This document shows positions 25,054 through 31,068 of a stretch of 64,000 nt of DNA, in pieces. Each line of letters opens with the position of its first letter. Position 1 is the first letter of the stretch. Origin of the DNA: an uncultured Candidatus Rokubacteria bacterium (GTDB lineage Bacteria > Methylomirabilota > Methylomirabilia > Rokubacteriales > CSP1-6); the NCBI GenBank assembly GCA_963789955.1, contig CAWBMV010000006.1, positions 224,001 to 288,000 of the forward strand. The letters are read 5' to 3'. A model generated the notes under the pieces. That model was not told where the DNA came from. It made no database searches and saw only the letters and a program-made list of their open reading frames with translations. Made by a program: the position numbers and the translations under genes.

Positions 25054-26230
25054 ATGGCCAGGCTGCGCCACGTGGTGCTCGTGCACTATCACGAGCTCGG
25101 TCTCAAGCGGGGCAACCGGCCGCTGTTCCTCCGCCACCTCGCGCGGAATCTCCGCCGCGCGACCTCCGATCTCGGCCCGGTGAACCTGCGCCAGGTGTCC
25201 GGCCGCCTCTTGCTGGAGCTGGACGAGCATCCCGACCCGGCGGCGGTCCGCGACCGCGTGCGTCGCGTGTGCGGCGTCGCGAGCGCGGCGCTCGCGTACC
25301 GCGTCGTGTCGACGGTGGAGGCGATGAAGGCGGTCGTCGCCGAGCTCGTCGAGGGCCGAACCTTCGCGTCGTTCAGGATCTCGGCGCGCCGAGCGTTCAA
25401 GACCTATCCGCTCACGAGCGTGGAGCTCAATCGCCAGCTCGGCGCGTTCGTGCTCGAGCGCGTCGCCACCAAGGTCGACCTGCGCCAGCCGGAGCTCGAG
25501 ATCCACGTGGAGGTGATGCCCGCCGAGACGTTCGTCTACGTCGATCCGGAGCCCGGTCCCGGCGGACTTCCGGTCGGCGCGAGCGGCACCGTCGCCGCGC
25601 TCCTGTCGGGAGGAATCGACTCGCCCGTCGCCGCCTGGCGCATGATGAAGCGCGGCTGTCGCGTCGTCTTCGTCCACTTCCACAGCGTGCCGTACCTGCC
25701 GCCCACCTCGCAGGCCAAGGCGCGCGCGCTGGTCGAGCGGCTGACCGCAGTGGCAGTACGACTCGACGCTCGTGCTGGTACCGTTCGGCGAGATCCAGCG
25801 CGAGGTGGTCCTGACGGTCCCGCCGCCGGCGCGCGTCGTGATCTACCGCCGCCTGATGGTGCGGATCGCCGAGGCGCTGGCGCGCAAGCACGGCGCCGTC
25901 GCGCTGACCACCGGCGAAAGCCTCGGTCAGGTCGCGTCGCAGACGCTCCCGAACATCGCACGCATCGACGAGGCCGCGACGATGCCGATCCTGAGGCCGC
26001 TCATCGGCATGGACAAGCTCGAGATCACCGAGCAAGCGCGCCGGCTCGGCACGTTCGAGATCTCGATCGAGCCGGATGCCGATTGCTGCACCTTGTTCGT
26101 TCCAAAGCATCCCGCGACGCACATGTCAGAGCACGAGGTCGGAGCGGTCGAGGCTCGTCTGGACATTCCGCGGCTGGTCGCCGCCGGCTCGGACGGCGCT
26201 TCGGTTGACGCGTTCGCGTTCCCGGCCTGA
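25054..26230 (+). CDS. thiI: tRNA 4-thiouridine(8) synthase, THUMP plus PP-loop, no rhodanese domain (indel near 25750)
   Basis: HYHELGLK.GNR, GGLPVG.SG, LLSGGIDSPVA, TGESLGQVASQT, RPLIGMDK, DCC. Confidence 0.94.
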
Positions 26231-26251
26231 AAAGCCCCCTCTGTTGTTACC

Positions 26252-26281
26252 TTGACACGCTGGAGCCACTACCGATATGGT
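26252..26281 (+). promoter_or_regulatory. Sigma70 promoter, probably giving a leaderless rpiB transcript
   Basis: TTGACA-18 nt-TATGGT-6 nt-ATG (26288). Confidence 0.7.
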
Positions 26282-26287
26282 GCCCGT

Positions 26288-26764
26288 ATGACTGTCGTCG
26301 CCCTGGGCGCGGACCACGCGGGCTTTCCGTTGAAAGAAGACCTCAAGACCTGGCTGATCACTCACGGATACGACGTGGTCGATCTGGGAACCCAGTCGGC
26401 CGAGTCCGTGGACTACCCGGACTTCGCGGTCGGGGTCGGCAGCGCGATCACCGCCGGCAAGGCCGATCGCGGCGTGCTCGTCTGCGGGACCGGTATCGGC
26501 ATGGCCATGGCCGCCAACAAGGTGCCGGGGGTCCGTGCCGCCGCGTGTACCGACGCGTTCGGCGCGCGGATGAGCCGCGAGCACAACGACGCCAACGTCC
26601 TGGCTCTCGGAGCGAGGATCACCGCGCGCGACGCCGCCATCGAGATTCTCGAGATCTGGCTCGGGGCCGAGTTCGCCGGCGGCCGTCACGCCCGGCGAGT
26701 GGAGAAGATCGCCGCCCTCGACCACGCGCGGGAACTGGAGTCCCCCGATGCACAGGCTCGCTGA
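26288..26764 (+). CDS. rpiB: Ribose-5-phosphate isomerase B
   Basis: [41 protein letters not shown]. Confidence 0.97.
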
Positions 26765-27995
26765 CACCGATCCCGAGGTCGCCAAGGTGCTGCGCGCGGA
26801 GGCGCAGCGGCAGAACCGGAACCTCGAGCTGATCGCCTCCGAGAACTTCGTGTCCGAGGCGGTGCTCGAGGCGGTCGGCTCGGTGCTGACGAACAAGTAT
26901 GCCGAGGGCTATCCGGGACGCCGCTACTACGGCGGCTGCGAGGTCGTCGACGTGGTCGAGGACCTGGCGATCGCGCGCGCCAAGGAGCTCTTCGGCGCCG
27001 AGCACGTCAACGTCCAGCCCCACTCGGGCGCCCAGGCCAACATGGCCGTCTACTTCACCTTGCTCAAGCCCGGCGACACCGTGCTCGGCCCGAATCTCTC
27101 TCACGGGGGCCATTTGACGGCCGGAAGCCCCGTGAACTACTCCGGCAAGTTCTATTCGATCGTCGCCTACGGAGTACGCAAGGACACCGAGCGCATCGAC
27201 CTGGACCAGGTCCGCGATCTGGCGCGCCAGCATCGGCCCAAGATGATCATCGCCGGAGGATCCGCCTTTCCGCGGGCGATCGACTTCGCGCCGTTCGGCG
27301 AGATCGCGCGCGAGGTCGGCGCTATGCTCATGGCGGACATCGCGCATCCGGCCGGGCTCGTCGCCGCCAAGCTTCACCCGTCCCCCGTCGGCATCGCCGA
27401 CTTCGTCACGACCACCACGCACAAGACGCTTCGCGGCCCGCGCGGCGGGATGGTCATGTGCCGTGCGGCGCACGCGCAGGCGCTCGACAAGACCGTGATG
27501 CCCGGCGTGCAGGGCGGCCCGCTGATGCACGTGATCGCCGGCAAGGCCGTGGCGTTCCGGGAAGCCCTCACGCCGGCGTGGCGAGGCTACCAGCAGCAGA
27601 TCGTGAAGAACGCGGCGGCGCTCGCCGCGGCGCTGCTTGGGTACGGCTACCGGCTCGTGACCGGAGGCACCGACACGCATCTCATGCTGCTCGACCTGAC
27701 CACCCGGAACATCACCGGAAAGGACGCCCAGGAGGCACTCGACCGCGCCTGGATCACCGTCAACAAGAACACGGTGCCGTTCGAGACCAAGAGCCCGATG
27801 GTGACCAGCGGCGTCCGCATCGGCACGCCCGCGGTCACGACACGCGGCATGCGCGAGGCCGAGATGGCCGAGATCGCCCGCCTCATCGACCAGGTACTGG
27901 CCAATCTTGGATCCTCGTCGGTCGAAGCGAAGGTGCGGGGAGAGGTGCAGGAGCTGACGAATCGGTTCCCGCTTTATCCGGAGCGAACCCGATGA
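26748..27995 (+). CDS. glyA: Serine hydroxymethyltransferase
   Basis: [37 protein letters not shown]. Confidence 0.99.
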
Positions 27996-28026
27996 CCCAA
28001 CCGGCATCGGGAAAGGGGGGAGCCCG

Positions 28027-28530
28027 ATGAAGTGCCCGTTTTGCGGTCACACGGAGGATCGGGTTGTCGACTCGCGGGTGGGCCGGGACGGGGAGTTCAT
28101 CCGGCGCCGCCGTGAGTGTCTCAAGTGCCACCGCCGGTACACGACCTACGAATACATCGAGGACGTGCTGCCGCACGTGGTCAAGCGCGACGGGCGCCGC
28201 GAGCCCTTCGACCGCCAGAAGCTTCGCGGCTCCATCTTGAAGTCGTGCGAGAAGCGGTCGGTCGGCGTGCAGGCCGTCGACGACGTCGTCGTCGAGATCG
28301 AGGCCCAGCTGCACGAGCGGGCCGAGAAGGAGATCAGCAGCGAGGAGCTCGGCCGGGTGGTGATGGACCACCTCCAGCGCCTGGACCCGGTCGCCTACGT
28401 GCGGTTCGCGTCGGTCTACCGTCAATTCAAGGACATCGGCCAGTTCGTCGAAGAGGTGAAGGGGCTCCAGCGGGACGACAAGACCAAGCCCGCCCCGGCG
28501 AAGCCACGCCCCCTTGCCAAGACCAAGTGA
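28027..28530 (+). CDS. nrdR: Transcriptional repressor NrdR
   Basis: MKCPFC, V.DSR, IRRRREC..C..RYTTYE, ATP cone, VAYVRFASVY. Confidence 0.98.
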   Translation: MKCPFCGHTEDRVVDSRVGRDGEFIRRRRECLKCHRRYTTYEYIEDVLPHVVKRDGRREPFDRQKLRGSILKSCEKRSVGVQAVDDVVVEIEAQLHERAEKEISSEELGRVVMDHLQRLDPVAYVRFASVYRQFKDIGQFVEEVKGLQRDDKTKPAPAKPRPLAKTK

Positions 28531-28551
28531 CCGGGTCGGTTGAAATAGCGC

Positions 28552-28583
28552 GGCCCTGCCGATGGAGTCGGATCGACAGGGCC
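28552..28583 (-). terminator. Hairpin terminator for the minus-strand micropeptide transcript (possibly bidirectional with nrdR)
   Basis: GGCCCTGCCGAT / ATCGACAGGGCC 12-bp stem; the single mismatch is G-U only on the minus strand; followed by ..TATTTC on the minus strand. Confidence 0.65.
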
Positions 28584-28599
28584 GAGCGCCGCGTGGGCC

Positions 28600-28638
28600 C
28601 TACTTCTTCTTCTTTTTGGTCGCCTTCTTCTTCGCCAA
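28600..28638 (-). CDS. Putative 12-aa lysine-rich micropeptide MAKKKATKKKKK
   Basis: TTG GCG AAG AAG AAG GCG ACC AAA AAG AAG AAG AAG TAG, preceded by AAGGGAGGTGAGGCG (strong SD), with promoter upstream and terminator downstream. Confidence 0.72.
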   Translation of the reverse strand: MAKKKATKKKKK

Positions 28639-28685
28639 CGCCTCACCTCCCTTCGCCGAACGACGAATCGCGTATCTAGCTCGGC

Positions 28686-28714
28686 ATGCTAGTGAGGTGG
28701 CAAAAATCTGTCAA
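28686..28714 (-). promoter_or_regulatory. Sigma70 promoter of the micropeptide gene
   Basis: TTGACA (28714-09)-17 nt-TAGCAT (28691-86). Confidence 0.75.
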
Positions 28715-28721
28715 GACCAAA

Positions 28722-28769
28722 AGTCAATACCTGGGGGTCGTCGAGCATTTCGCGCCCCATATATAGGGT
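28722..28769. promoter_or_regulatory. Two tandem NrdR-box-like sites, 32 bp apart
   Basis: agtCAATACCTGGggg (28722-37, 9/16) and gccCCATATATAGggt (28754-69, 12/16) versus consensus acaCwAtATaTwGtgt; adjacent to nrdR. Confidence 0.55.
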
Positions 28770-28779
28770 CGTCCGTAAA

Positions 28780-28808
28780 TTGACTTCCCGGGGGCCGCGA
28801 TGTAGCGT
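28780..28808 (+). promoter_or_regulatory. Sigma70 promoter of the radical SAM gene
   Basis: TTGACT-17 nt-TAGCGT. Confidence 0.65.
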
Positions 28809-28871
28809 GAGCGCACGGTCGGGGCACGGCCCATCACCCATAACTTTCCGCTCTTGAGGAGATCTCCCTCG

Positions 28872-30689
28872 ATGAGACGCGCGCTTAAGAAGCTTGTGTT
28901 CGTAGAACCGAAATCGACGCATCTGCACATCTATAGCCGGGTCTGTATTCCGCGCATCGGCTCGGTCCTGCTCGGCACCATCATGCGGGCCAAGGGCTAC
29001 GACGTCCGGGTCTACATCGAGGACATCCAGCCCCCCGACATGCAGGAAGTGCTCTCGGCCGACCTCGTCGCGATCTCGGCCATTACCTCGACGGCGCCGC
29101 AGTCCTACCGGCTGGCGGACCAGGTCCGCGCGGCGGGCGGAATTGCCGTCCTCGGCGGGACCCACGTGAGCTTCCTGCCGGAGGAAGGGCTCGAGCACGC
29201 GGACTTCGTCGTCCGCGGTGAGGGCGAGTTCGCGTTCCAGGAGCTCGTCGACGCCATCCAGGCCGGTCACGGGTTCGAGCAGATCAAGAACCTCTCGCAC
29301 ATCGTGGACGGGAAGGTGGTCAACCACCCGGAGCGCCCGAAGATCCCGAATCTCGACGTGAACCCGATTCCGGACTACAAGCTGATCACGGGCTGGAAGC
29401 CCGGCGGGGTCATCTCGGTCGCGACGTCGCGCGGCTGCCCGTTTTCGTGCACCTTCTGCTCGGTGCCGGGCATGTACGGCCACGCGTTCCGCACCCACTC
29501 GGTCGACCGCGTGCTGCAGGAGCTCGAGAGCCACCGGGGCAACGCCTATACGTTCTTCGCGGATGACATCTTCACGGCGAACAAGAAGCGCGTGAAGGAG
29601 CTCCTGCGCGGGATGATCGAGCGCAACCTCATTCCCGATTGGGGCGCCCAGGTCCGGACAGAAACCGTCGACGATCCCGAGCTCCTCGAGCTCATGCAGG
29701 CGGCGAACTGCTTCAACGTCTACGTCGGCTTCGAGTCCATCAATCCCCGGACGCTCAAGCTCTTCCAGAAGAAGCAGGACCTCGCGAAGATCGAGCGCTC
29801 GATCGAGCGCTTCCACGCCCACAAGATCCGGATCCACGGCATGTTCGTGGTCGGGTCCGATGAGGACGACGTCGAGACGATCGACGCCACCGCCGAGTTC
29901 GCGCTCAAGAACGACATCGACTCGATCCAGTTCATGATCCTGACGCCGATTCCGGGCTCGCCCGACTGGGAGCAGCTCTACGACCGCGGCGACAAGTACG
30001 TGATCAGCAAGAACTGGCAGTTTTACGACGGCCACCACGTCGTGCACCAGCCGCGGCGCATGAGCCCGTACGAGCTGCAGACGGGCGCGCTCGACGCCAT
30101 GGCGAAGTTCTACTCCTGGCGCGGTATCGCGAAGAAGCTCCTGAAGGGCGACCACTACTACGCGGCGATCCGGTACTTCGGCAAGCGAATGGTCCGCGAC
30201 TGGTGGAAGGACGACGAGAACCGCCAGCACGTCGAGTGGCTCAAGGCTCAGCTCTACTCGGATGCGAAGGAGCTCGGGCACCATGCGCTTCAGCGGGTGG
30301 GGCTTCCGGCCATCCTGCTGCAAGATTCCGTGGGACGCCTGCTCCAGCGCTTCCTGGGCGAGCTCGGCGTGACCGTCGTGCCGCTCGCGGAAGCCGCGGC
30401 CGAAGGCGCGGCGCGCGCCAAGGAAACCGTCGACTGCCTGATCACGCCGATCGTGAAGCGCGCGGTGAAGGAGCGCGAGGAGTTCTACGCGAATCTCGCC
30501 ACCGTGAACACCTTGCTGCAGAGCCAGTGGGAGAAGCTGCCACGCGTGAGCTTCCCGCTGCTCGACGGCCAGGGACCGGTGTTCGAGCCGTTCGCCAAGA
30601 TCGGTCTGCTCTTCACCAAGAACCTCGACCGCATCCGCGACGCCTACAAAACCGCCGGGGTCGCTGAAGGTCTCTGGGAAGCTGCGTAG
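28872..30689 (+). CDS. B12-binding-domain radical SAM protein with C-terminal DUF2229-like extension
   Basis: Cobalamin-binding Rossmann segment (DLVAISA.T, VLGGTHVS.LPEE, VVRGEGE), SRGCPFSCTFC, FADDIF, VGFES, TPIPGS. Confidence 0.9.
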   Translation: MRRALKKLVFVEPKSTHLHIYSRVCIPRIGSVLLGTIMRAKGYDVRVYIEDIQPPDMQEVLSADLVAISAITSTAPQSYRLADQVRAAGGIAVLGGTHVSFLPEEGLEHADFVVRGEGEFAFQELVDAIQAGHGFEQIKNLSHIVDGKVVNHPERPKIPNLDVNPIPDYKLITGWKPGGVISVATSRGCPFSCTFCSVPGMYGHAFRTHSVDRVLQELESHRGNAYTFFADDIFTANKKRVKELLRGMIERNLIPDWGAQVRTETVDDPELLELMQAANCFNVYVGFESINPRTLKLFQKKQDLAKIERSIERFHAHKIRIHGMFVVGSDEDDVETIDATAEFALKNDIDSIQFMILTPIPGSPDWEQLYDRGDKYVISKNWQFYDGHHVVHQPRRMSPYELQTGALDAMAKFYSWRGIAKKLLKGDHYYAAIRYFGKRMVRDWWKDDENRQHVEWLKAQLYSDAKELGHHALQRVGLPAILLQDSVGRLLQRFLGELGVTVVPLAEAAAEGAARAKETVDCLITPIVKRAVKEREEFYANLATVNTLLQSQWEKLPRVSFPLLDGQGPVFEPFAKIGLLFTKNLDRIRDAYKTAGVAEGLWEAA

Positions 30690-30690
30690 C

Positions 30691-30840
30691 GTCGGCCGGG
30701 TCGAGGCGGGGCTGGGATGTGCCTGCCTCGACCTGGTAGCAACCCGCCCTGCTGGGAATTCCTCCGGACTCTGCGTCGGGACAACCCTGACTACACAGGT
30801 CGAGGCAGACACATCCCAGCCCCACCTCGACCCGGCCGAC
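30691..30840. repeat. Large inverted repeat 1 (45-bp arms, 60-nt spacer), REPIN/MITE-like
   Basis: 30691-30735 matches the reverse complement of 30796-30840 at 43/45; each arm is itself palindromic (GGTCGAGGC..GCCTCGACC). Confidence 0.9.
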
Positions 30841-30904
30841 TCCGCGCTTCCGGCCGTTCTCGCGACTCGGCGCTTCGGTCTTGCTTCGAACCTAAGGCCT
30901 CGCC

Positions 30905-31068
30905 GCGGCGGACGGTCAGGGGTGGTGGGAGCGGGGTCGCGCGACCCGTTCCCTTCGAAGCGGTATCGAACGCCGCGCGCCCGGATGGAGCCCAGCCGCC
31001 GCGGAGCAGCGCACGCGTGCCGCGTGGTCGCGCGACCCCGCTCCCACCACACCCTGACCGTCTGCCGC
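30905..31068. repeat. Large inverted repeat 2 (about 42-bp arms, 79-nt spacer), REPIN/MITE-like
   Basis: 30905-30946 matches the reverse complement of 31026-31068 with one G-T and one bulge; each arm ends in the perfect palindrome GGTCGCGCGACC. Confidence 0.9.

Follow-up and report, generated by a model that had tools for sequence, protein, structure and literature searches.

A predicted lysine-rich micropeptide gene beside nrdR in Rokubacteriales and a candidate NrdR control site upstream of its promoter

Does an open reading frame (ORF) of only 12 codons, two thirds of them for lysine, constitute a gene of its own when it lies in the gap between nrdR and a radical SAM gene, and what could its product do? 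The question is raised by a 64,000-nt stretch of the genome of an uncultured Candidatus Rokubacteria bacterium (contig CAWBMV010000006.1, positions 224,001 to 288,000; hereafter the window), for which a preliminary description, made from the sequence alone, had proposed a highly expressed basic micropeptide acting as a histone H1 tail-like nucleic-acid-binding factor, as a tiny ribosome-associated protein or as a substrate of the neighbouring radical SAM enzyme. The genome is 6.77 Mb in size, 87% complete, and belongs to the order Rokubacteriales.

Reading of the sequence confirmed that all the parts of the proposed micro-gene are present in the claimed order on the minus strand, from 28714 down to 28551. 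A promoter scan located a -35 hexamer TTGACA (28709..28714) separated by a spacer of 17 nt from a -10 hexamer TAGCAT (28686..28691), which together make one of just two promoter-like sites within 26000-31000, where 0.4 would be expected. They are followed by a Shine-Dalgarno (SD) sequence (28643..28653) complementary to the 3′ end of the organism's own 16S rRNA, with its GGAGGTGA core 4 nt from the start codon, and by the micro-ORF (28600..28638), which starts with TTG at 28638, would be translated as MAKKKATKKKKK and is closed by a TAG stop ending at 28600; the codons after TTG spell AKKKATKKKKK, lysine being encoded by seven AAG and one AAA. The hairpin (28551..28584, minus strand), a probable 3′ end or terminator, is also there, with 13 base pairs including one U-G and a loop of 8 instead of the 12 pairs first claimed; its T tail on the same strand, TATTT at 28547-28543, is weak, and a terminator scan of the window did not call it. 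The 141-nt unit folded no better than its shuffles (z -0.32), and an Rfam scan of the window gave no match at gathering scores. That these signals exceed chance was borne out genome-wide: of the 3146 ORFs of 5-21 codons that an SD precedes in the 6.77-Mb genome, just three reach 50% lysine, and they are the micro-gene and its two paralogues. We regard the micro-gene as real, and as very probably translated into a basic micropeptide.

A match spanning the SD and the ORF was found in all 41 related genomes searched. In order to avoid selecting for the motif, we collected the cassettes by their neighbour, taking the stretch that precedes each radical SAM orthologue, at 63 loci (23 from the 41-genome set and 40 from 66 radical SAM matches, two unpublished genomes and five others being omitted). 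A Lys-rich micro-ORF was present at 38 of these loci; at the other 25 the radical SAM gene is kept and the gap to nrdR is often shrunken. The micro-ORF filter asked for at least 40% lysine, which ORFs carrying AAC or AAT would still pass, and all of the 297 AAN codons in the 38 cassettes are AAG or AAA. Start codons (GTG 32, ATG 4, TTG 2) and stop codons (TAG 24, TAA 14) are exchanged, the ORF length ranges from 10 to 13 codons and changes by whole codons, and among 20 in-register 12-mers third positions make up 7 of the 10 variable columns, with an identity of 0.91 in the ORF vs 0.33 in the leader of the same alignment. The cassettes keep the Ala/Thr/Gly spacer and the length of the peptide, the SD-to-start spacing is 4 nt in 34/38, and the TTGAC of the -35 hexamer is invariant across all 38. 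The hairpin showed no covariation, with two-sided changes in 0/10 pairs and a stem conserved in sequence. Selection acting on the predicted peptide is strongly supported by these alignments, which contain the conserved SD, the Lys-rich ORF and the synonymous variation that the preliminary description had suggested looking for in relatives.

Across the order, a looser pattern matched 91/98 genomes, a tally in which at least two of the listed matches have no start codon, one genome resting on such a match, and in which the reversed control matched in some genomes as well. The strict pattern matched 105/251 genomes of the phylum and only 2/68 outside the order, with no hits for its control. Unpublished genomes G115 and/or G232 are included in the order, phylum and radical SAM tallies, and no conclusion depends on either.

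The genome holds three copies in total, two of them tandem paralogues away from the window, MAKKKATKKKKK and MKKKAKKKKK, at C34:854673-854800, after an AbiEi-like regulator gene and facing the convergent rpmB; this rpmB-side arrangement recurs across the order with one to three copies. The two paralogues have no NrdR-type boxes, and in 21 such loci no box pair above 9/12 was found before the paralogues or their upstream gene. Two more basic micro-ORFs with a good SD, unannotated-looking, were noticed in the same genome at C22:524912 and C34:268219: one encodes 19 residues with KKPKKKKK at the end, the other an Arg/Lys peptide of 32 residues, perhaps a small protein of ribosomal type.

Both the paralogues and the element described here, a pair of NrdR-type boxes upstream of the micro-gene promoter, were absent from the preliminary description. 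The published NrdR site consists of two boxes 15-16 bp apart with C4, A6, A8, T9, T11 and G13 conserved, of which C4/G13 are critical and A8/T9 dispensable, and with a threshold of at least 63% AT between C4 and G13 (PMC13584703, as given in the sections available). In the window, box 1 (28754..28769), a 16-bp partial palindrome, has 6/6 of these positions, and box 2 (28722..28737), which follows after a 16-bp linker and ends 7 bp upstream of the -35 hexamer, has 5/6; no strand is assigned to either. The pair, with palindromes 32 bp apart, thus shows 11/12 published positions and departs solely at A8 of box 2, with C4, A6, T11 and G13 present in both boxes and an AT count between C4 and G13 of 7/8 in box 1 and of 5/8, at the limit, in box 2. 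The pair at the genome's own ribonucleotide reductase (RNR) promoter likewise scores 11/12, and seven such pairs occur in the 6.77 Mb, these two included.

When the 38 cassettes were aligned on the -35 hexamer alone, both boxes fell at fixed places, separated by a linker of 15-17 bp whose sequence is free. A score of at least 10 (spacing 31-33) was reached in 34/38 cassettes vs 1/492 promoter-like sites of the genome, that one being the window locus itself. Upstream of the radical SAM gene, pairs at 31/32 bp were present at 27/38 loci with the cassette vs 3/25 without, and the boxes are kept where the upstream neighbour is not the radical SAM gene (L025, L065, L090 and L106 score 10, L046 scores 8). 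The box pair goes with the peptide, not with the radical SAM gene.

Boxes were also found in a second phylum, at an unrelated locus in the class of L052 and L035, which we take to be Sysuimicrobiota and whose loci were assigned by eye from their neighbours. Where the peptide gene is flanked by an SLH gene on one side and an HD-domain gene on the other, 8/12 loci score 11-12 and the rest 8-9, other peptide loci of the class score at most 9, and two RNR promoters of the class have pairs of 10-11. RNR promoter boxes were seen in 2/4 genomes of other phyla (G400 11, G430 10), and none of at least 10 in the stretches examined for G415 and G456. The published search expression matched 16/38 cassettes and 7/12 SLH-HD loci, compared with 0/12 and 0/21 paralogous loci, on a background of 24 per Mb. 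nrdR itself is the gene adjoining the cassette, and L035 and L074 come from genomes that have it too. A box pair in Goldbacteria (L074, AT-rich) is single and was not replicated, the strict pattern having matched 1/41 genomes in that phylum. The related genomes are not independent, and the box counts stand for two or three evolutionary events. Overall, binding of NrdR to this candidate site and control of the micro-gene promoter appear fairly likely to us.

Two further NrdR-type pairs of the same genome, at C17:76674 and C34:750778, mark possible regulon members; one lies upstream of what is presumably a GuaB-like gene and the other before a PHP-like ORF. Upstream of the -35 hexamer of the RNR promoter, at C17 about 134920-134960, there are three or four conserved GTGGA repeats resembling DnaA boxes.

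Look-alikes of the micro-gene extend well beyond the order. A scan of GTDB contigs gave at least 123 matches in at least 117 loci, with at least 75 closed ORFs of 16 codons or fewer; the listed matches fall in Rokubacteria, ANGP1, Armatimonadetes, Binatia, Eisenbacteria, Brocadiales, Goldbacteria, Nitrospiria and Patescibacteria, and among archaea in Woese-, Nano- and Iainarchaeota, taxa that follow bin titles and can be wrong. A metagenome scan gave at least 87 short ORFs among at least 124 matches, and in viral contigs a peptide of 16 residues or fewer was found in 1/27 matches. Among the listed relatives, many come with a TTGACA promoter of their own and with a hairpin that ends in a run of T, amid unrelated neighbours. 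With the patterns used, prevalence outside the order is patchy (19/61; 7/61 in the order of L093; 1/81 in the class of L087; 1/41 in the phylum of L074), and the look-alikes, judged on 10 low-complexity residues, may be either homologous or convergent. The short relatives listed consist of 75% Lys, 20% Ala and 0.8% Arg, the search pattern fixing the first residues. Lengths form a series from 8 to more than 100 residues, in which forms of 16-107 are built of the same repeats, up to histone-H1-like ones. The start MAKKK-A/T-KKK (L061, L331, L291, L125) is shared by one HU and two SWIB proteins and by proteins that match histone-fold structures already solved (8fvx and 8cmp, presumably the Bdellovibrio histone). 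In a Pfam scan three long relatives had no family, one HU tail matched HC2 (PF07382) at E 0.0058, below the cut-off, and the 12-mer was too short; the ESM Atlas, queried with a 33-residue relative, returned only unnamed clusters.

Several of these relatives deserve separate mention. One viral contig (L179) encodes MAKKKKPVKKK with an SD and a terminator, and planctomycete histone-fold proteins (L061, L098) carry a MAKKKAAKKKVAKKK tail. Patescibacteria (L041, L060, L077, L093, L094, L103 and others) have MAK(7-9) flanked by what we take to be serS and secA, and between this ORF and the terminator they keep a TTGGTAAG...TTACCAA hairpin. At promoters of the candidate phyla radiation (CPR) type, DnaA boxes were unsupported for the loci considered, with 0/25 perfect boxes and 9/25 with one mismatch vs 10.4 expected. 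In a Brocadiales record (L053) the peptide gene follows, on the same strand, ORFs that are presumably nrdD- and nrdG-like. A second locus in the class of L052 (L407-L433) has a long, conserved, structured-looking leader, is sometimes tandem and is flanked by GNAT and nicotinate phosphoribosyltransferase genes.

The reading that we favour, about evenly balanced when taken as a whole, is that of a nucleic-acid-binding polycation whose expression is tied to the status of deoxyribonucleoside triphosphates (dNTPs). The micro-gene would stand alone, its sigma-70 promoter yielding an RNA of ~135 nt on which the near-perfect SD would load ribosomes onto the 12-codon ORF. Because position 2 is Ala, Met would be removed, leaving an 11-residue peptide with 8 Lys. 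Such a free polycation, comparable to a single repeat cut loose from a histone H1 tail or to a genetically encoded polyamine, would bind DNA, and probably other polyanions too, without sequence specificity, neutralising charge and helping compaction. NrdR binds DNA as dATP rises and releases it when ATP dominates (PMC13584703), so that expression from a promoter with its site would rise and fall with dNTP demand; this dATP/ATP-sensing repressor would probably control the window copy, on at high dNTP demand and off as dATP accumulates. Expression of this kind would favour DNA as ligand and would recall the replication-coupled histone genes, and we take DNA to be the main ligand with no more assurance than a toss-up allows. 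A polycation acting by its charge is the simplest account of a Lys peptide that is Arg-poor, foldless, length-tolerant and multi-copy, and among the three functions first offered the H1-tail-like one fits best. Since NrdR proteins bind heterologous sites (PMC13584703), the box pair can be tested without culturing the organism.

A broader version of this reading is put forward tentatively and is rather doubtful: in at least two phyla a histone-tail-like polycation of ~11 residues would be under NrdR, its supply tracking dNTP demand as a bacterial counterpart of replication-coupled histone synthesis, making it a two-box NrdR target outside RNR operons and the smallest in a class of chromatin peptides that has escaped notice and extends to CPR bacteria and DPANN archaea. 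If this were true, many uncultured bacteria and archaea would hold an abundant chromatin- or polyanion-binding peptide escaping gene callers and tryptic proteomics, wired in two phyla to the nucleotide-sensing NrdR, whose known two-box targets are RNR operons.

Several observations weigh against the favoured reading. On the side of the ligand, the affinity of an 11-mer for polyanions is low at cellular salt, and five HU/IHF genes and two spermidine-synthase-family matches are already present in the genome. Many unrelated proteins (EF-Tu, gyrase-like and others) also begin with MAKKK, which makes the fusions weak evidence. On the side of the regulator, the seven pairs of the genome do not stand out from the numbers at other spacings (0-6 at each one not divisible by three), so that the weight rests on position and conservation. 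The published expression misses the window pair, as it does the three RNR promoters tested, and with a matrix trained on the RNR boxes of the order the window pair was not among its 6 hits. Box 2 is degenerate in family f4 (7-9 of 12), and across the cassettes the boxes lie 6-8 bp upstream of the -35 hexamer, not over the -35/-10 region as at the genome's own RNR promoter; those in the window are flanked by promoters that point away from each other. Boxes are absent from most members of the family, the published expression matching 0/21 rpmB-side and 2/29 CPR-type loci, and a score of at least 10 was reached in 8/86 metagenome loci among the matches listed. It is also possible that the binder is another regulator with a similar palindrome.

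A different view of the peptide as a tiny ribosome-bound protein, filling a pocket between rRNA helices like bS22/mS38/eL41 (PF08213), bL37 or bTHX, seems unlikely to us. The site of bS22/mS38/eL41 lies among helices 27, 44 and 45 of 16S rRNA. The micropeptide shares with these proteins a very small size, a strongly basic character and the fate of being overlooked by annotation, bS22 and bL37 having been discovered only in ribosome structures (10.1101/2023.03.31.535098, as far as its available text goes), and it is near-universal in the order. Its two paralogues adjoin rpmB/bL28, though convergently, and a PF08213 (DUF1713) search found no match in the genome, at its stated completeness, so that the pocket may be free. 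Nevertheless, bS22 has 33 residues and bL37 24, at a single fixed length and with Arg, the bS22 domain being Arg- and Lys-rich, whereas the micropeptide has 12 residues and no Arg, in keeping with the low Arg content of its short relatives. Length varies freely from 8 to more than 40 residues and there are one to several copies per genome, as would be expected of a polycation acting by dose more than of a component present once per ribosome, and the NrdR-type site points to DNA metabolism.

Somewhat less probable still is a role as a general counter-ion or scaffold that serves polyanions such as polyphosphate granules, RNA or acidic proteins like RNR instead of the chromosome. It would suit a foldless peptide of pure charge, the association of the H1-like AlgP with polyphosphate granules (PMC9239181) and the preference of Hc2 for RNA (PMC2848022), both as stated in the available parts of these sources, and co-regulation with RNR would also suit an RNR partner; on the other hand, the fusions found carry DNA-binding domains.

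A function in translation or at the RNA level, as a lysine-sensing leader, as an RNA-stabilising or tRNA-Lys-tying minigene, or through (ARN)n repeats, is improbable. An EamA transporter gene lies downstream on the same strand in 4/38 cassettes (within 1000 nt) and in family f4, in some lineages EamA keeps the promoter after loss of the micro-gene (L242), and the sequence conservation of the hairpin stem noted above would suit such a function. A leader is opposed by the next gene in the window, nrdR, being convergent, by neighbours that vary among phyla, and by an alternative ORF-hairpin pairing that is unstable and gives only scattered duplex, the purine-rich ORF being mostly unpaired in the ensemble; an ARN motif would permit AAC/AAT, seen in 0/297 codons, and conservation of the Ala/Thr/Gly spacer and of peptide length likewise speaks against this reading.

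The flanking genes bear on the last alternative. nrdR (28027..28530, plus strand; Zn ribbon and ATP cone), the predicted regulator, is the convergent neighbour, and the B12-binding radical SAM gene (28854..30689, plus strand), which the cassette does not require, is the divergent one; its probable promoter TTGACT-17-TAGCGT (28780..28808, plus strand) lies outside the cassette and, on inspection by eye, is retained at loci where the cassette is lost. That the peptide is the substrate of this B12-dependent enzyme, in a pair like those of ribosomally synthesised and post-translationally modified peptides, is very improbable and the claim has lost ground: the two are adjacent and divergent at 38/63 loci and family f4 has another B12 radical SAM gene upstream (L080), but 25/63 enzyme loci have no cassette, the peptide occurs in genera g22, g26, g33 and g45 (5/5, 8/9, 4/4, 3/3) where an orthologue at E 1e-40 was found in 0/6, 0/12, 0/6 and 0/3, the peptide has no leader, no such neighbour is seen in other phyla, and a PqqD/RRE domain was absent in the Pfam scan (E 0.001), which a divergent RRE could escape; the enzyme may act in trans on paralogues.

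Compared with known systems, the DNA-binding polycation that we favour resembles chlamydial Hc1 and Hc2/HctB, Bordetella BpH1 and Pseudomonas AlgP in having Lys with Ala/Thr spacers, no acidic residues and a length variation based on repeats. The Lys-rich regions of Hc1 and Hc2 bind DNA (PMC2848022), and AlgP binds DNA as well as polyphosphate granules (PMC9239181). Unlike Hc2, which has 165-237 residues and many Lys-rich pentamers with two basic residues each (PMC2848022), the micropeptide is one 12-residue unit, two thirds Lys, with no folded or dimerising domain. Bacterial histone tails are mostly positively charged (PMC11390915), and the N-terminal tails of histone-fold, HU and SWIB proteins share the MAKKK-A/T-KKK start; here, unlike in those proteins, the tail is a gene of its own, and one query found no histone-fold match in the genome. 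By its sequence the predicted peptide is a minimal variant of H1-like polycations and a member of neither Hc2 nor bS22.

As for the regulator, the original survey of the NrdR regulon reportedly lists a few other replication genes. The window pair is like that regulon in its two 16-bp partial palindromes, its 16-bp linker of free sequence and its C4/A6/T11/G13. In the portions available of the cited papers, the two-box targets known so far are RNR operons, where the boxes cover the polymerase site (PMC13584703, PMC12051234), the sole non-RNR target discussed (topA, single box) is doubted (PMC12051234), and the regulon is treated as deoxyribonucleotide biosynthesis (PMC5343134); a 12-codon peptide gene whose boxes end 7 bp before the -35 hexamer differs from these. 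We found no paper on a poly-Lys micro-gene family or on its link with NrdR, a probable one on the present comparisons, in a search of mainly open-access literature by titles and abstract openings. ORFs as short as 30 nt are called in the GMSC catalogue (PMC11364881), and the micro-ORF sequence may sit in it unnamed.

Concerning expression, soil metatranscriptome contigs cover the ORF (X2 28434-28656, X14 28499-28659, X10 28341-28628). Three runs contain further contigs that match the ORF alone and diverge at its start and its stop, as other members of the family would. These contigs, from 4/21 listed runs, give neither strand nor level and may derive from DNA or from nrdR RNA; the high expression first proposed is not supported by them. 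The bin between the two promoters (28755-28891) is almost uncovered in all four runs, an observation of no evidential value, and depth cannot rank genes.

Elsewhere in the window, at 25054-26230, the thiI ORF looks frameshifted: the ThiI domain match covers 58 profile positions before it breaks off, and the C-terminal part continues in a different frame, which appears to be gene damage or an assembly error.
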